Made by a program: the position numbers and the translations under genes. Under the pieces are notes generated by a model. It saw nothing but the letters and a program-made list of their open reading frames with translations. It was not told where the DNA came from and did not search any database. 28,769 nucleotides of DNA from an uncultured Eubacteriales bacterium (GTDB lineage Bacteria; Bacillota; Clostridia; Oscillospirales; Acutalibacteraceae): assembly GCA_964475315.1 (NCBI GenBank), contig CAYYWE010000001.1:3210-31978 (forward strand), given 5' to 3'. Below, one piece after another: positions 6,113-18,888 of the stretch (position 1 is the first letter of the stretch; the number at the start of each line of letters is the position of its first letter).

Positions 6113-7894
6113 TTATTTTATTATATTGTACTTTGTTAATAATTTAGAAATTTTTTTTAATTTTGGTACGGTATTTAAGTCATTTGAAGTAATAGTGTTT
6201 GTTAAAATTAGACTTAAAATATAAATTATCATAGCTATTATTATGGATAATACAGTAGAAATTTTATACGGTAGTATATTGCTCAGTAATCCATGAGAAG
6301 CGTACGCACTTAAAGCACATAACGTGCTGGAAATTATAGGTTTGACAAAAATCTGATCAAAATTAATAGAAACATTTATTATTTTTTTAAGGCAAACAAT
6401 CGCTGTCACACATACAAATAAATAACAAGTTAGCGTCCCTATTCCTGCACCTTGGATGTTAATCTCTGGTATACCAACCAGAAAATAATTTAACAGTACT
6501 TTAATAATTACCCCGATGGTCAAAATTTTGAGTGGTATATCAGCACGACCTACAGCTTGTAAAATACTACATAATGGAGTGCCAAGAGCCACAAATATTA
6601 TACCGATTGCATAAATACTCATAATTTGTGCTGCAACTGAGATTTCGCCGATACTTTTATTTTTGCCTATAGTGTTATAAACTAGATCCATTATGGGATA
6701 AGACAATACGGACATTCCCAGACCGGCTGGAAAAGAGATAATACTGGTAATTTTTAGTACAGTTTCAATATTTTTTTGAATTTTTTCTTTAGTTTTGGTC
6801 ACCCATGCTGAAGTTACGTTTGGAAGAGCACTTATTGCTAAACCTTGAGTTATAGTCGGCAAAAACATAGTGATAGTGTTCATGTAGCCGAAACAGCCAG
6901 CTAAAAACACATGTGTACTCCCTGAACTCACCACGGTTTCTGGTATTAAATTACTGTAAGCTTTTAACAAAACTTCTGGAGCGTAGGTCATAATATCACT
7001 CAATCTTCTTTGAACCAAAGTTGCGTCTATGGCTGAAGCTATGTTCATAATTGCCGCGCCCATAGCAACCGGGATAGAAATTTTTAACAACTTTTTTAAT
7101 AATTCTTTTGCTGAACGAGCTGGAGGAGAGCTTTCCAGTTCTTCTTTTGTAATATGATCTCCAACAAATTTGTATTTTATCAACATATATAGATATCCAG
7201 ACAAAGCACCTAGAGTTATGCCCAAAACTGCACCTGCTGAAGCCCAAGATAACAAGCTTTCACGTGCTAGATTTTCTGTTTCATAATACGTCCCAAACAC
7301 AGTGTGATAATTATTATATTCTTTCATGCCGAAATACATAACCAGTCCTGCGAGACTTACCCCAAATACGACTTTTCCGATAGACTCCACTATTTCTGAA
7401 ACAGCCGTTGGAATCATGTTTCTGAGACCTTCATAATAGCCTTTATATATAGAAATCAAACACGAAAAAAACACAGTCGGTGCAAGCGCCATAAGTGAGT
7501 ACAGAGAGCCCGGTGAATTGATAAATTTTACATACGGAAAAGCCAACACGAACATTAATATTGACCCAATAAGTCCTGTAATCACGAACAACGGTACAGA
7601 AACTTTGTGTATAAACCTTACGTCTTTGTACCTTTTTTCTGTCAAGTCACTTGAAACCATTCTTGAAACAGCTATGGGCAGCCCAGCCGTGGCGAGAGCA
7701 TAAACAGGCGTGTAAATAGTGTAAGCCGTACTAAAATAACCCATCCCAACACCCCCTAAAATATATGACAATGGTATCTTAAAAGCCGCCCCTGCAATTT
7801 TCACGATTATCATACCAACAGCCATAATTAGTGCCCCGACAGCAAAAGATTGTCCGGTATTTTTTTGAGTTTTAATATCCTGTGGTGCACTCAT
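6113..7894 (-). CDS. MOP-superfamily polysaccharide / lipid II flippase (SpoVB/MurJ/YabM-like)
   Basis: N-terminal GALIM..GMIIVKIAGAAFKIPL..ILG..GMGYF..AY..Y..VYALATAGLPIAVSRMVS signature; many TM segments; SILQAVGR..IP motif. Confidence 0.88.
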   Translation of the reverse strand: MSAPQDIKTQKNTGQSFAVGALIMAVGMIIVKIAGAAFKIPLSYILGGVGMGYFSTAYTIYTPVYALATAGLPIAVSRMVSSDLTEKRYKDVRFIHKVSVPLFVITGLIGSILMFVLAFPYVKFINSPGSLYSLMALAPTVFFSCLISIYKGYYEGLRNMIPTAVSEIVESIGKVVFGVSLAGLVMYFGMKEYNNYHTVFGTYYETENLARESLLSWASAGAVLGITLGALSGYLYMLIKYKFVGDHITKEELESSPPARSAKELLKKLLKISIPVAMGAAIMNIASAIDATLVQRRLSDIMTYAPEVLLKAYSNLIPETVVSSGSTHVFLAGCFGYMNTITMFLPTITQGLAISALPNVTSAWVTKTKEKIQKNIETVLKITSIISFPAGLGMSVLSYPIMDLVYNTIGKNKSIGEISVAAQIMSIYAIGIIFVALGTPLCSILQAVGRADIPLKILTIGVIIKVLLNYFLVGIPEINIQGAGIGTLTCYLFVCVTAIVCLKKIINVSINFDQIFVKPIISSTLCALSAYASHGLLSNILPYKISTVLSIIIAMIIYILSLILTNTITSNDLNTVPKLKKISKLLTKYNIIK

Positions 7895-8454: not shown

Positions 8455-9654
8455 TTATCTAGAGAGATAAAGAGCTATAGCTGTACGGTTTGGAAGCTTA
8501 AGAATAGTACCAGCAGTAAGTTTGTCTGTGACTTCAAGACCGTTGAAAGTTGAAATAGCAGTAGCATATTTGTTTTCTTTGTAGTAGGACATTGCTATAG
8601 AAGAAATTGTATCTCCATACTGAACTATATAATCTTCGTATTCCATGTCTAAACCTTTGGAGAGAGTTATATTAGCTGTATCATCGTCGCCGGATTGGTT
8701 ATCTATGTTTTCTATTGAGACATTTTTGTCACTGGTGTCTTCGCTGTTTGCGTTATATGAAGTATCTCCGATAGTTACGAGCGCACTAGAACTGGCGGAT
8801 TTAGTGTTTTCTGTAAGTTTAGAATAAGCAAGATAAAATACTCCCAAAATTAAAGCGCTACTAACTGCTGTTTTAGACAATTTTTGGATAATCGGTTTTC
8901 TGAGTTCATAGTGATATTTTATATAAGATTTCCAGGAACTAGTTTGAGAGAGTTTTTCAGCTTTTTTTAATTCTACTATTAGCTCAGGTATAGATTCAAA
9001 CACCAGATTTTTGCATTTATCTAAAATTATATGAAGAGGTTTATTAAACCCCATAGAACATTCCGGTTCAAGAATAGTATAAATAATATCATGAATATTT
9101 TTAAAAATTAATTTTTTACTAGTTTTAGAGTCAGAATATTTACTTAAATTTTTTAAATTTCCCTGAAATAACACGTCTTTATCTTTGTTTAGTACAATAT
9201 TTTCGAGCTCTGTAAGACAACCTATAATTTGGTTTGGAAGGGAGTTCATATTGTAAATTCTAATTAAAATATATTCAAGTATAGAGCATCTTTCGTTAAA
9301 ATGACTGTCATTAAAATTTTTATCAAAAAAAGTTTTTATATTTTCATACTGATAGTATTTAAAAACAGCATAATAATTATTATTTTCTATAAAAAAATTT
9401 TTATATTCATGAGGTTTATTACTAGATTCGTAAGCTGAAAACAAAAGCTCTAAAATACTTGTATTATTTTTATCGTATTGGAATTGATTTAAAATATATA
9501 AATTGTCAAGTGTATTTTCGTTTTGATAAGCTACGAGTGTACTATAATTACTAATATTATTATTAATATTAGTATTTTTTTGGCTGTTATTATTAATATT
9601 ATTATATAAATTAGCTATTATAGTATAATTCGAATTTTTGTTTAAATTAGACAT
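8455..9654 (-). CDS. Single-pass membrane protein with C-terminal LysM domain and N-terminal putative degenerate protein-kinase-like domain
   Basis: LysM: YIVQYGDTISSIA..YY......I..FNGL....L.AG..LKLP. TM: AVSSALILGVFYLAY. The N-terminal pattern YAVFKYY / ERCSILEYIL / LENIVLNKD.DV resembles the kinase hinge, alphaE and catalytic-loop region (inference). ATG 9654 is preferred over GTG 9666, which overlaps the RBS-like AAGGCGTG. Confidence 0.8.
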   Translation of the reverse strand: MSNLNKNSNYTIIANLYNNINNNSQKNTNINNNISNYSTLVAYQNENTLDNLYILNQFQYDKNNTSILELLFSAYESSNKPHEYKNFFIENNNYYAVFKYYQYENIKTFFDKNFNDSHFNERCSILEYILIRIYNMNSLPNQIIGCLTELENIVLNKDKDVLFQGNLKNLSKYSDSKTSKKLIFKNIHDIIYTILEPECSMGFNKPLHIILDKCKNLVFESIPELIVELKKAEKLSQTSSWKSYIKYHYELRKPIIQKLSKTAVSSALILGVFYLAYSKLTENTKSASSSALVTIGDTSYNANSEDTSDKNVSIENIDNQSGDDDTANITLSKGLDMEYEDYIVQYGDTISSIAMSYYKENKYATAISTFNGLEVTDKLTAGTILKLPNRTAIALYLSR

Positions 9655-9740
9655 ATATTTTTTCACGCCTTTTTTATGAAATTTGTAAAAATTTATATAA
9701 TTTTATAAAAAACTGAACAAATAAAACATATTTATTGCAC

Positions 9741-9769
9741 TTGACTAGATATTTATATGATAATATACT
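9741..9769 (+). promoter_or_regulatory. Putative sigma-A promoter of the HAMP/MORN operon
   Basis: TTGACT (9741-9746) - 17 bp - TATACT (9764-9769). Confidence 0.5.
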
Positions 9770-9785
9770 AGAATAATTAAGTCAA
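9757..9785 (-). promoter_or_regulatory. Putative sigma-A promoter of the LysM gene, overlapping the opposite promoter
   Basis: Minus strand TTGACT (9785-9780) - 17 bp - TATCAT (9762-9757). Confidence 0.45.
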
Positions 9786-9870
9786 TAAAAACTCAAAAAA
9801 ATATAATTACTAATATTTTTTGTAAAATTTGTGTAATTTTGTTTTTTAAAAAATATTTATGTGAGGGGAT

Positions 9871-12843
9871 TTGGTCGTGAAAAAAAACTCAAATAATAAT
9901 AAAAAAAATAAAAATAGTAATATTAAAGAAAATTTCAAGAAAAATCTTGGTGACAGTGCTGTTGGAATTACAAAATTACTGGCTAACAAAAAATTTATAT
10001 ACGTGTTACTAGGAATATTATTATTAAGTTTGGGTTTTGTAGCACAGTATTTTTTGAATAGACCAAATTTTGGTACTTTTTTGGGTTCTGATATGGACTT
10101 ATCTAACAATGTTTATATTTTAGGTGTTAATGAAGAAAATAATGAGTACAAAATTACAAAAGTGTCGCAAAGTGGAGCAACTAAGTTTCAACTAAAGTTA
10201 GAAAAATCTAATGACAAATACGAAAATGTATATAAAAATTTAGAAGTAGACTCTAAAGGTAATATTTATATTGTAAAACAACAGAAAAAAATTGATGCGG
10301 TAGTTTCAGATGCCAGTATGTACCCAACTACAAATGAAAAAATTTTAATGTATGATCATAACGGAATATATATAAAAGAAATAGCTTCTATAGATTTCAC
10401 ACAAAGCGCTAGTCCACCAGTAGAACCGTATATACAAAAAATACAAATAGTAGACCAAAATATGTTTATTATAGCTCGAGAAGGTAATTATTATGATATT
10501 ATTTCGGCTAATCCGTTGTTAGATGAAGCTCCTAAAAAAATTAAGTCTTTTGAAATTGTTCCAGATGGTGCTTTAACAAATCAAAATTATCAATGGGTAA
10601 GTGATATGAGTGTATTATCTAGCGGAAGAATTTTTTATTCGACTTTAAATGGTAAATTATATGGTACTAATAACCAGGGGGTATTTGAAGATTATTCTAG
10701 TGTTATGAAAACGAATAATTTTTTAATCTCAGATATGAGCATAGATCCCAATGATGATTTATATTTTACAGATACTGTAACAGGTAGGTTTTATAAATTA
10801 AATACAAAAAGTATTTCTTTACAGACTTTATATAATCTAGATAGTCCGTTATATGAAAACACAAACTTGATTTTTAGAGATATCAAAAAAGTAAAATGTT
10901 TAGACACAGGGGATTTTTACGGAAATTCTAAGTCTTATGAAAAAGTGTTTCATGTCAGATTTGGGAGTAATAATTATTTAGTTGGGAATTTAAGAGGTTC
11001 GTTTTTCCCGTGGGGCCTAATTATTATGATACTAGTAATTTTATTGGTAATTGGAATTTTTTACGGTATTAAATTTTTGGCGAAATTAGAAATAAAAAGA
11101 ATACCGTTGGTAGTAAGAATATTAAGTTTATTTTTACCGGTGTTTATTATTTCTATGATAGTTTTAGTCGGAGTTAATACTCTGGATGGTGTTAAAGAAT
11201 ACATGAGTTTGTTAAAAAGCGAACAAGAACGTGGAGCTAAAACTGCGTCAGACTTAATATCAGGTAGTGATTTTGCAAAATTAAATCACGTATCAGGCTA
11301 TATGAACTCAGATTATATAAAATTAAAAAATTCTTTGCAAAAAAGTCATAGTGATATTTATTCTAAAATTGGAGATAGAAGTGATTATTTAGTTACTTAT
11401 GTAGAAAATTACGGTAGTTTATATACTAGTATTAATACTAAATATGACGTAAATTCAGAAAGTTATAACAGATTAAAATATACAAACCCAGATATGGTTC
11501 CTAATGGTTACTGTCTAATAGATTATGTTTTAGAGCAAGATGAAGTTGAAAAATTATATAATATCTGGAATAAATTTGTCTCTTCAGATAATACAGAATA
11601 TTACATGGACGTAGAATTTAAAGACGTATACGGAGATTTAACTGCCTCTTTTGCTCCTATAAAAGACTCTAATGGGCAAGTAGTCGGACTAGTAGGGAAC
11701 TTTCTAGACGAAAAAATTCACCAAACTAGAGAATTTTGGGAAATTTTAAAACATGCTTCGGCTCTTATATTAATAATTACTATATTAATTATATTTTATG
11801 TATGTTTTATAATAAAATACGCTTTGAGACCGTTAAAAAAAATAGAAAAATCTATAAAAACTACAGAAACTGGTACTTGGGATACAAGAATAAAATTAAA
11901 ATCTAAAGATGAATTTGCTGACATAGCTGAAGCGTTTAATATTATGTCAGAAAAAATTCAGAGATATACTTCGAATTTAATAAAATTAAATAAAGAGTAT
12001 ATAAGATATATTCCTGATAAATTATTTAAATTAATAGACAAAGATAAAATCACCCAAGTTAATTTACATGATAATAAATCTTGTTTGCTAAATATAGTAC
12101 AGGTAAATTTTAATATTTCATGTAATGATAAATTTGATTTTAATAATCAAATAGATGTATTTAGAGCTATAAGCGAAAGTTATGAAAAATTATTTGACGT
12201 AGTAGAACAAAATCACGGTATAGTACATTCTTTTGACGGTCTAGGACTAATAGCTTTGTTCCCAGATAGTCCAGATGATGCTTTTCTAGCTTCGTTACAA
12301 TTTAAAGAGCTTGAAATTAATAAATTTGTAAAAGATCAAATGCACATATTATTAGGCTCAGGTTATGTACTAACTGGTATTTCTGGAGATTCTGAAAGAC
12401 GTGGTGTGATATTAATTTCAGACGAACTTATGCAATTATATAATATGAATTCTAGATTAAGTATTTTGGACATAAACCACGTTGCAACAGAAAGTATTAT
12501 TAAAAATATAGAAAATATAAAAAATAAAGGGACTCTTTCTTTTAGATATATCGGTCGTGCTGAAAATACTACTGGTGGAGAGTTTACTAATATTTACCAA
12601 ATAATAGAAAATAATAATAAATATAAAAAAGATTTGTATATTTCTACTTTTGAAATATTTGAAAAAGCTGTTAAGTTATATTTAAATAGTGAATTTGAAG
12701 AAGCACGTAAGTTATTTGCAAGTGTAATAAGAACTAACGAAAATGACAAAGTTAGTATGAGATATTTATTATTATGTGACGAAGAACTTAATAAAATAAA
12801 TCAAATTGGTATGACTAAAAATTTCACCGGTTATATTATATAA
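9871..12843 (+). CDS. Four-TM receptor: beta-propeller-like ectodomain, second ectodomain, HAMP, degenerate class III nucleotidyl cyclase domain, TPR-like tail
   Basis: TM segments near aa 43-63, 380-402, 414-437 and 630-652. Blade-like repeats EVDSKGNIYIV / DMSVLSSGRIFYS / DMSIDPNDDLYFTD. HAMP: RPLKKI...DTRI.LKSKDEFADIAEAFNIMSEKI. Cyclase-like YIRYIP..LF.L...GLIALFP..PDDA..ISDE; tail FEKAVKLY...F.EARKLF..V...N.ND.VS.RYL..C. Confidence 0.82.
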   Translation: MVVKKNSNNNKKNKNSNIKENFKKNLGDSAVGITKLLANKKFIYVLLGILLLSLGFVAQYFLNRPNFGTFLGSDMDLSNNVYILGVNEENNEYKITKVSQSGATKFQLKLEKSNDKYENVYKNLEVDSKGNIYIVKQQKKIDAVVSDASMYPTTNEKILMYDHNGIYIKEIASIDFTQSASPPVEPYIQKIQIVDQNMFIIAREGNYYDIISANPLLDEAPKKIKSFEIVPDGALTNQNYQWVSDMSVLSSGRIFYSTLNGKLYGTNNQGVFEDYSSVMKTNNFLISDMSIDPNDDLYFTDTVTGRFYKLNTKSISLQTLYNLDSPLYENTNLIFRDIKKVKCLDTGDFYGNSKSYEKVFHVRFGSNNYLVGNLRGSFFPWGLIIMILVILLVIGIFYGIKFLAKLEIKRIPLVVRILSLFLPVFIISMIVLVGVNTLDGVKEYMSLLKSEQERGAKTASDLISGSDFAKLNHVSGYMNSDYIKLKNSLQKSHSDIYSKIGDRSDYLVTYVENYGSLYTSINTKYDVNSESYNRLKYTNPDMVPNGYCLIDYVLEQDEVEKLYNIWNKFVSSDNTEYYMDVEFKDVYGDLTASFAPIKDSNGQVVGLVGNFLDEKIHQTREFWEILKHASALILIITILIIFYVCFIIKYALRPLKKIEKSIKTTETGTWDTRIKLKSKDEFADIAEAFNIMSEKIQRYTSNLIKLNKEYIRYIPDKLFKLIDKDKITQVNLHDNKSCLLNIVQVNFNISCNDKFDFNNQIDVFRAISESYEKLFDVVEQNHGIVHSFDGLGLIALFPDSPDDAFLASLQFKELEINKFVKDQMHILLGSGYVLTGISGDSERRGVILISDELMQLYNMNSRLSILDINHVATESIIKNIENIKNKGTLSFRYIGRAENTTGGEFTNIYQIIENNNKYKKDLYISTFEIFEKAVKLYLNSEFEEARKLFASVIRTNENDKVSMRYLLLCDEELNKINQIGMTKNFTGYII

Positions 12844-12897: not shown

Positions 12898-14406
12898 ATG
12901 TCAGTAATTTCAAATATATTTTCAAGAGTTACTACTGGTATACAAACACAGTTAACTTCTATATCGACTTTGATGGTAAAAGCAAAAAATTTTGGCAATA
13001 GAGCGGCTGCATATGCGCAACAAAAGATACAAGCTCTAGCCCAAAATTTAACCCGTAACCCTAGGTCCAAAGAAGACTACGTAAAAGTATTTGGTTTATA
13101 TATTTCTAAAAAATTTACTACTATTTCTATTGTAGTAGTAGGAGTTTTAGGATATTTATTAATATATCAGCTTATACCATGGGCTGAAGGTAAAGTTTGG
13201 ACTACTAATTTAAAAATAGATACTATTAAATATACTACTTTTAGTGGAAAATCTAGAGTTTATAATCAAAATGACCAGTTAATATATCAAGGCAATTTGA
13301 CTAACGGAAAACCTGATGGCCCTGGTAAGCAATATTTTCTTAACGGAAGATTAAAATATAATGGAAATTTTCAGGCCGGAAAATATCACGGTGAAGGTGA
13401 ATTATTTGGTGAAGACGGAATAATTATATATTCTGGTATGTTCGAAAACAATAATTATCAAGGCGAAGGAAAATTATATAATAACATAGGTAAAGTAATA
13501 TATGTTGGTTCTTTTGAAGTTGGACAAAGATCTGGCAAGGGTATAGAATATGATCCAGATACTATGTTAAGAAAATACTATGGAGATTGGATTAATGATG
13601 TAAAAAATGGCTATGGCGTAGAATATGAAGAAGACGGTACTAGTGTTAAATACGAGGGTAACTTTAAAGACGGCTCATACGGTGGCGAAGGTATGTTATA
13701 TGTAAACAGCGTACTAAAATACGCTGGAAGTTTTGCCAACGGATTATATAACGGCACGGGAAGTTTGTATAATCTCGATACAGGTACTCTAATTTATGCC
13801 GGTGAATTCAAAGACGGTCTGTATGATGGCGCTGGTATATTATACGACCAGGATACTTCGACAATATTATATAACGGTACTTTCTCTAAAGGTAAAAAAC
13901 AAGGCACTGGTACGTCTTATGACAAGTTGGGCTCAACTGAGTTTACCGGTGACTTCAGAGGGGACAGCATAGATTATATAAAATATTTAGGTAGGTCTCC
14001 TGAAGACGTAACTGCTGAGTTTGGTCAAGAAACATACAAAACTGAAGTAGACAATAAATTAATTATTACCTATTTGGGTCTAGACGTATCAGTAGTGTTT
14101 AAAATAGACGAAGAATTAGGCACATATGTTTGCGAAAAAATGATCTTGGGAACTAAAAAAGAATTTATGGGTCTTGGCGCCCAGAGTACAGCCGTAGAAA
14201 GACGTGAAGTTATGGGCGAACCGTTTTCATCTATAGACTTTAGTTGTTCGGATTACTATAAAACTGTATTTTCTAATTTAGCTATTAATATTAATAACAC
14301 CAATGCTATACCATGCGATAAATACATGCTTGATAAGTATTTTATAAGATTTTATTTTAACGACGGCAGAACAGAACTAAAATGTATTGAAATTTGTTCT
14401 TTATAA
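12898..14406 (+). CDS. Membrane-anchored MORN-repeat protein
   Basis: About nine consecutive Y.G.F..G...G.G..Y repeats (YQGNLTNGKPDGPGKQY to YNGTFSKGKKQGTGTSY) after one TM segment (TISIVVVGVLGYLLIYQLI); AGGACGGA RBS-like sequence upstream. Confidence 0.9.
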   Translation: MSVISNIFSRVTTGIQTQLTSISTLMVKAKNFGNRAAAYAQQKIQALAQNLTRNPRSKEDYVKVFGLYISKKFTTISIVVVGVLGYLLIYQLIPWAEGKVWTTNLKIDTIKYTTFSGKSRVYNQNDQLIYQGNLTNGKPDGPGKQYFLNGRLKYNGNFQAGKYHGEGELFGEDGIIIYSGMFENNNYQGEGKLYNNIGKVIYVGSFEVGQRSGKGIEYDPDTMLRKYYGDWINDVKNGYGVEYEEDGTSVKYEGNFKDGSYGGEGMLYVNSVLKYAGSFANGLYNGTGSLYNLDTGTLIYAGEFKDGLYDGAGILYDQDTSTILYNGTFSKGKKQGTGTSYDKLGSTEFTGDFRGDSIDYIKYLGRSPEDVTAEFGQETYKTEVDNKLIITYLGLDVSVVFKIDEELGTYVCEKMILGTKKEFMGLGAQSTAVERREVMGEPFSSIDFSCSDYYKTVFSNLAININNTNAIPCDKYMLDKYFIRFYFNDGRTELKCIEICSL

Positions 14407-14850: not shown

Positions 14851-15906
14851 TTAGTATTCATAAATAAATTTTCTTAAATCTTCTTTAGTTTTTGACAAAT
14901 TATTTATAACCAAAACCATTTTTTGGGAATAAGTTTCGTTCCGCACGTTGTCATCTGTAGGGATTCTAAATTCTTCTATATCATATTTTAGATATTCTAA
15001 AGAACTGAAAATTAATCTTCCGATTTCAGATTGTTTGAAATCCGTACTTACGAGAGGCGCCAAATTTGAAACTAACTCTGTTATTTTTGTAACATTGGCG
15101 GTTTTCAGTTTTTCTATGACCGATTTTATAACTTGTCTTTGACGTAAAGTTCTATCATAATCCGAGCCTATGCTATCGCGATTTCTAGCATGTTGAAGTG
15201 CCTGTACACCCGTTAAGTGTTTAACTCCAGAAGAAGTTTCTAATTTGTTATTTTTTATATTAGCATGTTTATTTATATATGCACATTCTTGACTAGTTAA
15301 ATTTAATTCTATTCCACCAAGAGAGTCAATTATTTTTGAAAATCCTTCGAAGTCTACACATGCGTATCTGTCTATATAAATACCAAAATTTTTATGAATA
15401 GTATTTATAGTTAATTTACAGCCACCGTGTGCATAAGAAGCGTTTATTCTGTCTTTGTTGTGACCAGGTATGTCTACCCAAATGTCACGCATAATAGAAG
15501 TTATTTTTATTTTTTTTGCGCGCATATTTAGAGACAAAATTAGCATAGAGTCACTGCGACCACCATCGCCAGCAGACATAGAATCGCTACCGACCAATAA
15601 TACATTTAAGATCATATTGTCATTTAATAAATTACCGGCGTTATTTACAAACAATTCAGAGTTATCTTTGGTTTCAAAATTTTGCTCGTAATTAAACGAC
15701 TTTAAAGTAACATAAGCATAAATCATAATGTTCCCGATAATTCCAACACACAAAAAAAACACACAAAATAATATTTTACTTATAGAAATTCTAGATTTTC
15801 TTTTTTCTTTTTTTTTTTCTGAAGAGTATATGTCTACATATTTTTGTCCTGTTTTTTCACATATGCGCTCGTTATGTTCCGAATAATTATTATTGTTATT
15901 GTTCAT
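14851..15906 (-). CDS. LCP (LytR-CpsA-Psr) family cell-wall glycopolymer transferase
   Basis: N-terminal TM; LNVLLVGSD, GRSDSMLILS, SIMRDIWV.I, RINASYAHGG, VDFEGF..IID.LGGI, AL.HARNR..SDYDRT.RQ. Confidence 0.93.
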   Translation of the reverse strand: MNNNNNNYSEHNERICEKTGQKYVDIYSSEKKKEKRKSRISISKILFCVFFLCVGIIGNIMIYAYVTLKSFNYEQNFETKDNSELFVNNAGNLLNDNMILNVLLVGSDSMSAGDGGRSDSMLILSLNMRAKKIKITSIMRDIWVDIPGHNKDRINASYAHGGCKLTINTIHKNFGIYIDRYACVDFEGFSKIIDSLGGIELNLTSQECAYINKHANIKNNKLETSSGVKHLTGVQALQHARNRDSIGSDYDRTLRQRQVIKSVIEKLKTANVTKITELVSNLAPLVSTDFKQSEIGRLIFSSLEYLKYDIEEFRIPTDDNVRNETYSQKMVLVINNLSKTKEDLRKFIYEY

Positions 15907-15988: not shown

Positions 15989-18703
15989 TTATGGCATCCA
16001 TTGTTTTGCTTCATTTTCATCAATGTGAAATCTGCCACATTTAACAACGTTTTTAATATAACTTTCGACCTCTTTTAATGCCTTGTCGTTATCTCCGCTT
16101 AAATTAATACAGCTATTTTCAGCGTTTTGATACGGATATTTATCACTATAACAAATTCTTCCTTTGCCATCAGTTAAGACATAGTACGGGCTACTACCCA
16201 TGTAAATCATTCTTTTATGATTGTATTGAAATTTAAGCCCTGACTCAATAATCTCTGAAACTGTCTGAGGGCCATTTTTAATACCATATTTATTTTTCCA
16301 CTCAGTATTATCTTTATTTTTGATAAAATCATTTCTAATACTATCAGATGTAGACATACCTGAAATACAGTTATTGTCAATAATCCATAGTTTTTTGAAC
16401 TTCTCCAAATTTTCTATAATTTTGTCTTGAGCAATAAAATAAGTTTTTAAATACCACAAATTTCTAAAAAGTTTACAAGTGTTTTTAGAGTGATTTTTTA
16501 AATTTTCTAGTGAACTTTTTTCTATTTTAAAATTCGAATCACTGGACCTAATAATAGTATCAATTTTTTTTTTATTATTAGCCCCTGCTAAATTACTAAC
16601 AGGTCTGAATATATTATTTATAACTTCGTTATAAATATCTGTTAATTCCGATAATTTAATTTTTTCTATATTTTTAACAGCTGTACATACATCATTTATT
16701 TTTTTACGTATAGAGCTTACTTTTTTACAAATATCACTATATTCTTTAGAACTTATTTTTTCTTGAATGCTTAAAAAGTTTTCTTCAAATTTTTTTAAAT
16801 ATTCTTGAATTTTATCGCAAACATGGTTGCGTGTATTATAATTTATAATATCCTCTGGTTTACTATTTTTTGGAGTTTTTAATATGTCCTCTAAAACGCC
16901 ATCAATATAAGTGTTAGCATCCGTTTCGACACTATCCAATTTGTCCCCAAAACTTTTTATTTTTTCTAGTAATTTCTCATATGATTCAATAAATTTTTTG
17001 GAGCAGTCATTTATTAACTTTTCAGTATCATCTGATAATTTTTCGGTATCCCTAAACTCTGTATTTTTTATATTGTTAGATATATTTTTAATTTTACTTA
17101 TTGAGTTCTTCAAGTTTTCTCTACTTTGTAAGTTGTTTGGCTTAATCTCTCTTAAATTTTCCTTAATATCATTAAAAATTTCTTTAATACTATTAAAAGA
17201 TCCTAAATTTTCTGTTTTTATAGTACTAGAAATAAAAAGAGATCTTTTTATAACATCATGTACGAAACCCTGTAAGTCTACACCATCACTAACCATGCCA
17301 AGCCACTTTGTTTTACCATACTTATTACTACAAATATCGTCATAAAAGCTAGTTCCAGTTAAGTTTCTCATAACACTACTAACTTGATCAATAGCCATTT
17401 TGTTTTTTATTAGATCTTCAAATTGTTTTTTTATCAACTCTATTTTTTCTTTAAATTGTTCAAAAAAAAATTTTATATTATAAATATTTTTATCATCAAT
17501 TTTTTCGATTTTTAAATTTTTTACACTATCAAAATCTGAAAAGTTTAAGCTTTTAGCATCTAAAGAAAAACTAGAACTATCACTTAAATTTTCTATTTCT
17601 TTACACAACTTTGATAAAAAATCATATATATCTTTGTGGTATTTGTCTAAAGATTTTTGACCATTTTGTATAATCTTACATAACTCTTTTAGCTTAATTT
17701 TTATTTCACCAATGGTGAATTTTTTTAGATCTATACTATCCAACAAATTTTTTAAATTTTCATTCATACTAAATAATCCATTAGTTTTTTCAAGAATTTC
17801 TAATTTTTTTTCTTCAATTTTTTTAAAATTTTCATCGTCTTCTAACAATTTATCGATCGTTTTCATTATATCATTATAACTAGTTTCCCAACTGTTTATA
17901 TTTGTATTGATTTTTGATTTAGAAAAAGTCAAAAACTCTGAAGAACGAACCTTTATGAAAAAAGTGTCAATACAATCTTTTATTTCTTCTTTATAAGTCA
18001 TACATGTTTCTAAATCAGCGTTGTCGTCTAGTACATCTATTTTTTTGAAGTTAATTGTTTGTTCGATTTTGTTTAAAAAACCTATTATGCCACTACTACG
18101 CATATCATTAAATAAATTATACAATATTTTCATCATATCTCTATAATTTCCTTTTGATTTTAGATTTTGCAAATTATATTTATTAAATATTTTAATTATT
18201 TTATTTAAAACATTGTCTTGTTGCGTAGCTTTGTTATGAATATTACCCATTAAAGTTTCAAGAGACTTTTTTAAACTTTCTACTGAATTTTTTACATCTT
18301 TGCCCGCAATTAAAGCATATTTAGGAGCTTTGTTACAACTATTTAAAAAAGCAACTACCGATTTATAAAAATTATTTAATCTAACATATTCGTCCTTTTT
18401 AGAGTTTGGTTCATATGATAGACTTAGACTATTTATAGCGGCGTAGCTTTCGCTGTAATTAAATTTATTTCGATTATTAAGAAATTTATCCATGTTGGTT
18501 TTGAATTTTGCTAAAGTGCACATAATTTTTTGTTCAACATTTTCAATATTTTTAAAATTTAAATCTTTGTAACTGTCTATTTCTTTTTTTAAATTATTAA
18601 TTTCTTTAATAAGTTCAATTCTTTCTTGATTTTTCTCTTTTCCACCTGTGCCTATAAAAGAACCTACAACAGCTTGTTTGATTTTTTCGCTTAGCTTACT
18701 CAT
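15989..18703 (-). CDS. Large helical / coiled-coil-rich hypothetical protein (about 904 aa)
   Basis: 2.7-kb open frame; ATG 18703 follows AAAGGGTG (the ORF track's GTG 18712 lies in this RBS). K/N/I/E-rich, with no signal peptide, TM segment or recognisable motif. Confidence 0.75.
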   Translation of the reverse strand: MSKLSEKIKQAVVGSFIGTGGKEKNQERIELIKEINNLKKEIDSYKDLNFKNIENVEQKIMCTLAKFKTNMDKFLNNRNKFNYSESYAAINSLSLSYEPNSKKDEYVRLNNFYKSVVAFLNSCNKAPKYALIAGKDVKNSVESLKKSLETLMGNIHNKATQQDNVLNKIIKIFNKYNLQNLKSKGNYRDMMKILYNLFNDMRSSGIIGFLNKIEQTINFKKIDVLDDNADLETCMTYKEEIKDCIDTFFIKVRSSEFLTFSKSKINTNINSWETSYNDIMKTIDKLLEDDENFKKIEEKKLEILEKTNGLFSMNENLKNLLDSIDLKKFTIGEIKIKLKELCKIIQNGQKSLDKYHKDIYDFLSKLCKEIENLSDSSSFSLDAKSLNFSDFDSVKNLKIEKIDDKNIYNIKFFFEQFKEKIELIKKQFEDLIKNKMAIDQVSSVMRNLTGTSFYDDICSNKYGKTKWLGMVSDGVDLQGFVHDVIKRSLFISSTIKTENLGSFNSIKEIFNDIKENLREIKPNNLQSRENLKNSISKIKNISNNIKNTEFRDTEKLSDDTEKLINDCSKKFIESYEKLLEKIKSFGDKLDSVETDANTYIDGVLEDILKTPKNSKPEDIINYNTRNHVCDKIQEYLKKFEENFLSIQEKISSKEYSDICKKVSSIRKKINDVCTAVKNIEKIKLSELTDIYNEVINNIFRPVSNLAGANNKKKIDTIIRSSDSNFKIEKSSLENLKNHSKNTCKLFRNLWYLKTYFIAQDKIIENLEKFKKLWIIDNNCISGMSTSDSIRNDFIKNKDNTEWKNKYGIKNGPQTVSEIIESGLKFQYNHKRMIYMGSSPYYVLTDGKGRICYSDKYPYQNAENSCINLSGDNDKALKEVESYIKNVVKCGRFHIDENEAKQWMP

Positions 18704-18888
18704 AAAAAACACCCTTTCTGTGATATATTTACAAATAAAAATAATTTTATTCGATTATTTTAGTATTATAAAACAAAAACGTCAAGCCATTGAAAATTAT
18801 AAATAATTTTATTTTCGTACTTGAAATACACAAACATAAGTTATAAAATTAAAGAATTGATATTTTAAAATTTTAGGAGGAGATATTT

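Follow-up and report, generated by a model that had tools for sequence, protein, structure and literature searches.

A 28,769-nucleotide stretch of DNA from an uncultured Eubacteriales bacterium (contig CAYYWE010000001.1 of assembly GCA_964475315.1), hereafter called the window, carries at positions 9871-12843 a gene for a transmembrane receptor that ends in a class III nucleotidyl cyclase-homology domain (CHD) from which the catalytic residues are missing. Judged from the sequence, the CHD is very probably a non-catalytic, maintained pseudoenzyme. The best explanation, to which we assign a probability of roughly 60%, is that it acts as a signal-controlled, non-catalytic docking or output domain of an envelope module associated with a contractile injection system (CIS). 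A functional tie of the receptor module to the CIS is likely, and docking or gating is our tentative proposal for the actual mechanism. What would be new is the recruitment of a fully degenerate class III cyclase output domain, together with a pseudokinase, into a CIS-associated envelope module.

The frame of the receptor gene is intact. The likelier start codon is GTG 9877, which lies 8 nt past the ribosome-binding sequence AGGGGA (9863-9868) and gives a protein of 988 aa; database entry P0002, also of 988 aa, is 100% identical to the receptor. Receptor residue numbers were counted from TTG 9871. The protein comprises four transmembrane (TM) segments, a propeller-like and an sCache-like ectodomain, a HAMP domain, a cyclase-transducer element, the class IIIb CHD and a three-helix TPR-like tail, arranged as follows.

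9871..12843, plus strand: whole receptor gene, intact open reading frame (ORF) of 990 aa from TTG 9871 (ORF list and translation)
9994..10050, plus strand: TM1, residues 42-60 (Kyte-Doolittle, 19-residue window, score 2.1)
10051..11013, plus strand: ectodomain 1, residues 61-381, beta-propeller-like (NHL/SGL/SBBP type), as a lead
11014..11175, plus strand: hairpin of TM2, a short basic loop and TM3, residues 382-435 (Kyte-Doolittle 3.0 and 2.8; by hydropathy, TM2 is residues 382-400 and TM3 residues 417-435)
11176..11757, plus strand: ectodomain 2, residues 436-629, single-Cache-like (Atlas sCache_3_3/sCache_3_2 clusters at 0.90-0.92)
11758..11814, plus strand: TM4, residues 630-648 (Kyte-Doolittle 3.1)
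11806..11961, plus strand: HAMP domain, residues 646-697 (PF00672, E 7.5e-10, 39.4 bits, cut-off 25)
11962..12057, plus strand: 32-residue linker with a cyclase-transducer-element-like motif, residues 698-729, LNKEYIRYIPDKLFKLI...KITQV
12058..12609, plus strand: class III CHD without catalytic residues, residues 730-913
12610..12795, plus strand: three-helix TPR-like tail, residues 914-975, common to canonical class IIIb relatives

The HAMP domain sits directly behind TM4, as in a HAMP transmembrane receptor. For ectodomain 1, the Atlas feature search gave NHL/SGL clusters at 0.83, under the trust level, and an SBBP repeat match was found in relative P0133 with a faint one in the query receptor. 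As for ectodomain 2, Pfam detects sCache_3_3 in relatives P0113 and P0143 and dCache_1 in P0098. The single-Cache-like assignment is the better-supported of the two leads. The tail helices occupy model residues 218-239, 243-256 and 261-280 of the AlphaFold2 (AF2) model described below, a weak TPR_2 match was seen in relative P0155, and past residue 975 there is a short, variable C-terminal end.

The CHD is a true class III homologue, with a similarity far beyond chance. When 1.84 billion cluster representatives were searched by phmmer with residues 690-990, 3013 matches had E<=1e-3 and 923 had E<=1e-10, in an unbroken run from close relatives to proteins above the threshold of Pfam Guanylate_cyc (PF00211); among the PF00211-positive matches were P0109 (E 2.5e-23) and P0113 (E 9.4e-23). 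The PF00211 scores of P0109, P0113 and P0155 are 63.7, 70.3 and 74.0 bits, respectively. In the hhalign comparison of the family profile with 34 canonical relatives, the probability was 100% and E 3.6e-42 over 273 columns, linker and tail included. The 67-sequence family profile also matched PDB entry 2w01 (Cya2) with E 9.6e-5. With Pfam and NCBIfam, the whole receptor and residues 690-990 gave HAMP alone, and a single-sequence phmmer search against the PDB gave spurious low-complexity matches only, such as OspA. Thus the PF00211 search with which the initial annotation had wished to check its reading of a cyclase domain found no cyclase match in the query, even at E<=10, and the homology was seen via profiles and phmmer instead.

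Structural superposition, another check named there, did recover the fold of a class III cyclase. With the family alignment as input, AF2 gave a model with a pLDDT of 84.4 and a pTM of 0.82. The top 50 PDB matches in Foldseek were all class III adenylyl or guanylyl cyclases with probability 1.00, and the VIA Z-scores were 17.7 for OaPAC (205 residues, root-mean-square deviation 3.5 A), 16.2 for Cya2 and 15.7 for CyaB. These VIA superpositions span model residues 1-216, which are the linker helix and the CHD; the solved structures leave the tail uncovered, and the tail aligns with canonical cyclase tails in hhalign. In the same alignment, the transducer element and the helical C-terminal tail match the canonical relatives column for column, so that the YIP..LF element and the tail, described earlier as retained, are indeed common to canonical IIIb relatives. 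Invariant residues common with these relatives are N707, V714, P715, K724 and I727 in the linker and T926, F930, E931, Y937, A945, F949, D959 and Y965 in the tail. The arm hairpin region (residues 824-849) is gap-free against canonical cyclases, and the model shows it as a long beta-hairpin.

Six catalytic positions were read from a MAFFT alignment of the query and 147 relatives, canonical 'DKDTNR' cyclases included. The canonical rows have D-K-D-T-N-R versus N746, S787, L791, I847, M854 and N858 in the query. The segments concerned are VNLHDNKSCLLNIVQVNFN (residues 730-748, nt 12058-12114), IVHSFDGLGLIALFP (residues 784-798, nt 12220-12264) and ILISDELMQLYN (residues 847-858, nt 12409-12444), and YIPDKLF upstream of them is residues 713-719. 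The replaced sites are listed below.

12106..12108, plus strand: N746 at the first metal-binding Asp, Thr or Ser in the family (MAFFT, merged alignment)
12229..12243, plus strand: S787 at the substrate-specifying Lys and L791 (codon 12241) at the second metal-binding Asp, SFDGL versus canonical KYIGD
12409..12444, plus strand: I847 (class IIIb Thr), M854 (transition-state Asn) and N858 (transition-state Arg), in ILISDELMQLYN
12568..12576, plus strand: T900-T901-G902 at the canonical K-G-K loop (merged family/canonical alignment)

The motifs quoted in the initial annotation were all found at their places in the translation. Its assignment of Asn (12106), Leu (12241), Ser and Met/Asn to the catalytic positions agrees with the MAFFT alignment, and for S787, L791, M854 and N858 an independent hidden Markov model alignment to PDB 2w01 gave the identical register. 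The alignment to the cyclases had been described as gap-free, which holds only approximately: in hhalign the beta1 register is held up to V745, aligned with Ser, but compensating 8- and 9-residue gaps follow in the beta1-alpha1 loop. Pairwise BLAST against P0069, the first canonical match, likewise has a gap at the first Asp. The register was settled by the 148-sequence alignment and hhalign. The query is devoid of acidic residues from 744 to 752, and the family conserves none in this stretch. In the merged alignment, the Arg after the first Asp corresponds to N748, and the Asp before the Lys corresponds to H786 in the query and to Gln in the family. The K-G-K loop, which binds phosphate in cyclases, is invariant among the canonical relatives of this alignment.

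Class IIIb architecture is judged here after the Linder and Schultz classification. Of its catalytic features, the receptor lacks the two metal Asp, the substrate Lys (or Glu) and Asp/Thr, and the transition-state Asn and Arg; the class IIIb Thr, present in 100% of the canonical relatives, is I847 in the query. As read from the alignments, the catalytic residues have given way to other residues, mostly hydrophobic or polar, which are conserved in their turn. By descent the protein is a class IIIb receptor cyclase, and by its catalytic features it falls outside the enzyme family.

The replacements are not peculiar to this protein. The family contains 67 homologues of ~975 aa with ~50% identity and the same architecture, and the gene occurs in 42 species-level genomes; these all belong to uncultured Clostridia from the gut of goat, human, mouse and other hosts. 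Across the 67 members, the six positions are T/S in 96%, S in 81%, L in 85%, V/I/L in 96%, M in 90% and N in 85%; D/D/K/N/R is not kept. New neighbouring residues (Y744, F747, N748, F788, R844, G845, Q855, F857 and D860) are 85-100% conserved. On the aligned members, the loss of the catalytic residues is old and family-wide, not a lineage-specific decay. A few features are found in the query only: a three-residue insertion, NIK, at residues 882-884 (12514-12522), which is in no other member, Asn746 where the family has Thr or Ser, and Gly792 (12244-12246) where 63% of the family have Asp.

Purifying selection was seen by the Nei-Gojobori method in 11 close ortholog pairs, in which dN/dS of the CHD was 0.00-0.09, equal to that of the sensor ectodomains, and dN/dS over the whole gene was 0.04-0.10. 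The receptor ORF was intact in all eight carrier genomes sampled. The CHD lacks the canonical catalytic residues although the gene is under purifying selection, which is what defines a pseudoenzyme, and with the low dN/dS, the family-wide replacements and the intact frame, the earlier proposal of a maintained pseudoenzyme rather than decay is upheld. Mean pairwise identity within the family is highest of the whole protein in the HAMP-to-CHD linker (0.76), followed by the HAMP domain (0.65). Since linker and HAMP are under the strongest constraint, the CHD is probably still a regulated output and not merely a passive dimeriser.

Degeneration extends beyond the family. Among the 148 nearest cluster representatives at 50% identity, both metal Asp are absent from 89, one is present in 11, and 48 have both. 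In a FastTree tree, which was built with the six catalytic columns removed and is unrooted, one clade (support 99) contains 52 rows, 48 of them Asp-Asp, and the remaining rows are all degenerate. If the root lies among the canonical enzymes, catalysis would have disappeared in one event or a few, and wide diversification would have come afterwards. PF00211 is still passed by some degenerate members, such as Herbivorax WP_306694978.1, named 'adenylate/guanylate cyclase domain-containing protein' at NCBI; the query's branch fails.

The genome itself offers no cyclic-nucleotide system that we could detect. In the own genome (G000; 0.88 Mb, 151 contigs, 91% complete), where the receptor gene is single-copy, profile searches found neither PF00211 nor the cyclic nucleotide-binding family PF00027, and PF00211 was also not found in five relatives of 1.0-1.4 Mb that are 92-99% complete (G089, G006, G020, G106 and G107). 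Because the catalytic residues are lost, no cyclase or cyclic nucleotide-binding domain was found and the replacements are conserved, the receptor most likely makes no cyclic nucleotide. The own genome has two HAMP proteins in all, the other being a 746-aa ORF at G000:C7:5287-5439. Apparently, the organism has very few transmembrane sensors.

The receptor gene belongs to a conserved trio, of which the other members and the region between them are as follows.

8455..9666, minus strand: divergent neighbour, 403 aa, with a pseudokinase-fold domain, a TM segment and a C-terminal LysM (PF01476)
9667..9870, no strand: AT-rich divergent intergenic region of ~200 bp, presumed promoters (GC content of window positions 9001-10000, 0.20)
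12898..14406, plus strand: downstream neighbour, a 502-aa membrane protein with MORN repeats (PF02493, E 2.6e-15) and a single TM (residues 75-93)

For the N-terminal 255 residues of the LysM protein, AF2 and Foldseek gave a protein-kinase fold with TM-scores of ~0.5; the top matches were S. aureus PknB/Stk1 and the pseudokinases PAN3, MLKL and Rv3910. PF00069 (Pkinase) found no match to the LysM protein in the genome search. As far as the model goes, the locus pairs a pseudokinase with a pseudo-cyclase. The LysM gene is present in 39 of the 42 family loci, and in the remaining three the contigs end upstream of the receptor gene. The MORN gene, co-directional with the receptor gene after a 54-nt gap, is likewise present in 39 of the 42, with 44-69% identity. 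The order LysM (minus), receptor (plus), MORN (plus) is kept in 39 of the 42 species loci, and the outer flanks vary.

The link to the CIS comes from the neighbourhoods of more distant homologues, which were looked up for seven degenerate relatives outside the family and one canonical relative (P0155). For four of the seven (P0102, P0098, P0222 and P0082), the surroundings are a full CIS cluster, in which the order of the genes is the same each time. It runs through Phage_base_V, gp25, a ~995-aa protein, a ~720-aa protein, Tail_P2_I and a ~590-aa protein; then come the LysM/pseudokinase gene (~392 aa), the HAMP-pseudo-cyclase and MORN; these are followed by a ~650-aa protein, a Cu_amine_oxidN1 protein, Pvc16_N, a ~250-aa protein, DUF4280 (PAAR-like) and an AAA ATPase. 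The four clusters are CIS of the Afp/PVC type. P0082 falls within the query's own 27-row tree clade. P0129 and P0143 adjoin DUF4280, and P0129 also the AAA ATPase. P0133 has the same local order, with ~594-aa and ~304-aa proteins upstream and MORN, a ~692-aa protein and Cu_amine_oxidN1 downstream, and no CIS core gene was found within its 5-kb flanks. P0155, the sole canonical relative examined, has an unrelated neighbourhood and no CIS. In the loci L050 (1-22733), L051, L052 and L053, the ~995-, ~720-, ~590-, ~650- and ~250-aa proteins are without a Pfam family, and the Cu_amine_oxidN1-domain protein between MORN and Pvc16_N has 726-977 aa.

The members of the trio in the window correspond to those of the clusters. 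The LysM protein is homologous to its cluster counterpart (E 1e-11 over 366 residues), the MORN protein matches the MORN of the CIS clusters with E 3e-65 and 30% identity, and the receptor has 29% identity to its L050 counterpart over 338 residues from HAMP to CHD (tblastn). In the window the trio is not inside a CIS cluster. It is inside one at P0102, P0098, P0222 and P0082 and at L042, the most divergent family locus, where Tail_P2_I through AAA ATPase are present, and it is partly so in 12 further loci; Pvc16_N lies 1-5 kb downstream of MORN in 13 of the 42 family loci. The trio of the window is nevertheless orthologous to the in-cluster trio, and the matching CIS is encoded in the same genome: contig C15 has gp25, the ~996-, ~723- and ~592-aa proteins and Tail_P2_I in the same order (gp25, ~996 aa, ~723 aa, Tail_P2_I, ~592 aa) with 30-36% identity, and other contigs have a 579-aa sheath (C26), DUF4280 (C38) and the AAA ATPase (C50). 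Trio and CIS proteins have diverged in parallel from the L050 cluster, at 29-30% versus 30-36% identity. In tblastn at 1e-4, the ~634-aa, Cu_amine_oxidN1 and ~246-aa proteins of L050 gave no match in the own genome, which is fragmented and 91% complete, so that their absence does not follow.

Carriage of the pseudo-cyclase coincides with carriage of a long sheath. In a sample of 121 genomes of the taxonomic family, the pseudo-cyclase was found in eight, mostly of 1.0-1.4 Mb. A sheath ORF of 574-608 aa was present in all eight carriers, whereas only 1 of the 113 others (a genome 70% complete) had one. The other sheaths in the sample are 300-483 aa long and are probably of prophage types. In G104, the sheath and receptor genes are 9 kb apart on one contig.

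These results suggest the following mechanism. A ligand outside the cell would move the HAMP domain and the transducer element, and this movement would change the shape of the pseudo-cyclase dimer and its TPR-like tail. Partner proteins would read out the shape of the dimer through changed contacts, which may involve the pseudokinase domain, the MORN N-terminus or baseplate proteins. The trio would form an envelope-spanning platform: LysM would rest on the peptidoglycan, and the outer side of the membrane would carry the propeller, sCache and MORN domains. On the cytoplasmic face, the pseudo-cyclase, the tail and the pseudokinase could dock, position or gate a CIS assembled in the cytoplasm when a cue arrives from outside. 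When two copies of the CHD plus tail were co-folded with residues 1-255 of the LysM protein (the pseudokinase domain), the score was 0.00, the mark being 0.32, and the result was counted neither way. That the trio is the membrane and cell-wall anchor and the trigger of the CIS in monoderm Bacillota, sensing a cue with two dead signalling enzymes and free of catalysis, is a possibility that we consider less likely than not.

Several observations weigh against a CIS-associated docking or output domain. In the window, the genes on either side of the trio have housekeeping and envelope functions (gyrB, MurJ-like, LCP, RseP and IspG) and are not CIS genes, and tblastn at 1e-4 detected no homologue of Pvc16_N in the own genome (91% complete). 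The counts of sheath carriers come from related genomes, so the association does not represent independent events. In the closed genome G020, the sheath and receptor genes are ~690 kb apart, and a CIS-independent role is therefore possible in this lineage. Both ectodomain assignments are leads only. Finally, the loss of the canonical residues is formally compatible with another chemistry.

The alternative that survives best is an envelope-signalling module independent of the CIS, whose three proteins would monitor, or help to organise, the growth of the cell wall or division, in the manner of AdvA in Acinetobacter or of PASTA/LysM kinases, and for which the CIS neighbourhood of the relatives would be a historical linkage. 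We regard it as unlikely. In its favour, the trio of this window and of most close relatives lies apart from CIS genes, amid genes for a MurJ-like flippase, LCP and other housekeeping or envelope functions; LysM binds peptidoglycan, AdvA (see below) offers a precedent for a divisome role, and the receptor is one of two HAMP proteins in a very small genome. However, the flanking housekeeping genes vary among the loci, and the long-sheath CIS is found in each sampled genome that carries the gene. Moreover, six of the seven distant degenerate relatives adjoin CIS genes and the seventh, P0133, has the same flanking order, and trio and CIS proteins have diverged in parallel.

It is improbable that the CHD is instead a non-catalytic ligand-binding domain, in which a remodelled pocket at the dimer interface takes up a nucleotide or small molecule as an intracellular input. 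Degenerate second-messenger domains are well established as receptors (LapD, FimX, PelD), degenerate GGDEF/EAL domains bind GTP or c-di-GMP, and the pocket residues Y744, F747, N748, Q786, S787, L791, R844, G845, M854, Q855, N858 and D860 are 81-99% conserved (position 786 being His in the query). A tightened dimer or a partner interface explains this conservation equally, however. The base-, ribose- and phosphate-contacting residues are gone, several of them in favour of bulky hydrophobic residues, with which the pocket would be filled, and the own genome yielded no cyclase or cyclic nucleotide-binding protein.

A cryptic enzyme, carrying out nucleotide cyclisation or a related palm-domain reaction via D789, D792, D851, E852 or D860, is very unlikely. 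Some acidic residues are found close to the former site, with D851 and D860 conserved at 97-99%, and a review (PMC10211241) reports migrated catalytic residues for some 'pseudoenzymes'. But D851 is conserved in canonical cyclases too, and D860 stands in place of their conserved Glu; these two are therefore probably inherited structural positions. No Lys or Arg substitutes for substrate or phosphate binding at the canonical sites. The initial annotation had named a shifted Asp in FDG as a residue that might still support catalysis. This candidate, D789, was rejected: it is 73% conserved, being otherwise Ser or Gly, and D792 is 63% conserved and Gly in the query.

Hardly to be expected is a regulatory half of a heterodimeric cyclase, paired with an active class III monomer as C1 is with C2. 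Class III cyclases are dimers with shared sites, and degenerate partners exist; but the receptor has lost the Asp pair as well as Lys/Thr/Asn/Arg, the two halves of the site, so it has nothing to give to a shared active site, PF00211 was found neither in the own genome nor in the five relatives, and the gene is single-copy. A decaying remnant or an annotation artefact, for which the failure of Pfam to recognise the CHD might speak, can be dismissed in view of the intact 990-codon frame, eight intact ORFs in eight genomes, dN/dS of 0.04-0.10 and ~50% identity over at least 42 species.

The CIS-associated docking or output domain was compared with known systems. The class IIIb comparison set consisted of the metagenomic P0113 and P0155 (sCache-HAMP-Guanylate_cyc-TPR-like tail, ~930 aa) and the solved catalytic domains of Cya2 (2w01), CyaB (3r5g), OaPAC (4yus, 8qfg) and Ma1120 (4wp9). 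The receptor resembles HAMP-linked class IIIb receptor cyclases in overall length, in the order ectodomain(s)-TM-HAMP-transducer-CHD-helical tail, in fold (Z 15.7-17.7) and in the core residues G783, L796-F797-P798, G836, G839, R843, S850-D851 and R892. It differs in the replacements D to N/T/S, K to S, D to L, T to I/V, N to M and R to N and in the loss of K-G-K, in a second, propeller-like ectodomain on a four-TM scaffold and in being PF00211-negative. Its partners are pseudokinase-LysM, MORN and CIS genes, unlike the unrelated neighbourhood of P0155.

AdvA offers the best precedent from experiment, and the only one, for the way in which a catalytically dead CHD-like domain can act. AdvA of A. 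baumannii and PA4961 of P. aeruginosa are membrane proteins with a non-catalytic nucleotidyl-cyclase-like domain; AdvA showed no adenylyl or guanylyl cyclase activity and binds ZipA via its tip and an extra C-terminal helix that matters for function (bioRxiv 10.64898/2026.04.03.716176). According to the same report, AdvA is cyclase-like in structure only, with very low sequence identity and without the dimerisation arm (bioRxiv 10.64898/2026.04.03.716176). Like AdvA, the receptor is membrane-anchored with a cytoplasmic CHD-like domain that lacks catalytic residues. It is set apart from AdvA, as described in that paper, by its sequence homology to class IIIb, the arm region, the transducer element, the IIIb tail and the HAMP domain in front, and by its occurrence in Bacillota, where it is linked to the CIS and not to the divisome.

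Other degenerate domains have also kept a nucleotide-signalling fold under selection after catalysis was lost, with binding or conformational signalling as its new use. LapD, FimX, PelD, the animal C1/C2 cyclases and soluble guanylyl cyclase share this with the receptor, and their degenerate sites bind a nucleotide or drug-like ligand or pair with an active half. In contrast to LapD/FimX/PelD and C1/C2, both site halves are lost here, and a cyclic-nucleotide system was not found in the genome. Among contractile machines, TssJLM of the type VI secretion system and Streptomyces CisA are membrane proteins encoded in CIS clusters and are thought to connect the machine to the envelope. The trio resembles them in its fixed place between the baseplate and cap/ATPase genes of Bacillota CIS clusters. 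It has no known sequence or fold relationship to them, being built of HAMP, pseudo-cyclase, pseudokinase, LysM and MORN modules, and its anchoring or gating role is a proposal from these features.

We found no account in the literature of the receptor family or of a HAMP/cyclase-like CIS component; the coverage was incomplete, and this is weak evidence. To our knowledge, how a Gram-positive CIS is connected to the membrane and the thick wall, and how it is triggered, is largely unknown. The trio provides concrete, testable candidates for this connection, and culturable carriers exist, candidates with the clustered version being Herbivorax sp. ANBcel31 (WP_306694978.1) and Wukongibacter baidiensis (WP_432666855.1). 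If the proposal is right, an anchor and trigger complex would set the place and time at which a phage-tail-like machine assembles or fires, and would be kept even in genomes of ~1 Mb. The retention of the ~6-kb trio and the CIS in gut Clostridia of ~1.0-1.4 Mb argues for importance to their lifestyle; the own genome, of 0.88 Mb, likewise still keeps the trio and a complete-looking CIS. In public databases, members are named 'HAMP domain-containing' or, wrongly, 'adenylate/guanylate cyclase domain-containing', and counting them as cyclases would inflate the extent of cAMP signalling in Clostridia. As a pseudoenzyme that can be traced by sequence to class III cyclases and has kept its signal-relay parts, the receptor is suited to asking what a cyclase dimer does besides catalysis.

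Some further observations concern the surroundings of the trio. A flippase gene of MurJ/MatE/Polysacc_synt type lies two genes upstream of it (6113-7894, minus strand), and its placement varies in relatives. Rv3910, whose kinase-homology domain is among the fold matches of the LysM protein, is the mycobacterial MurJ homologue with a pseudokinase domain of its own. Downstream lies a 907-aa ORF (15989-18712, minus strand) that matches no Pfam family and is without a counterpart in the 42 family loci; it adjoins the LCP (LytR-CpsA-Psr) gene at 14851-15906 (minus strand). UCH, the ubiquitin C-terminal hydrolase family, is unusual in bacteria. A UCH match (PF00443), absent in the window, was detected in the gene after MORN in three close relatives (L002:10543-12120, L003:10625-12796 and L004:10758-11843).

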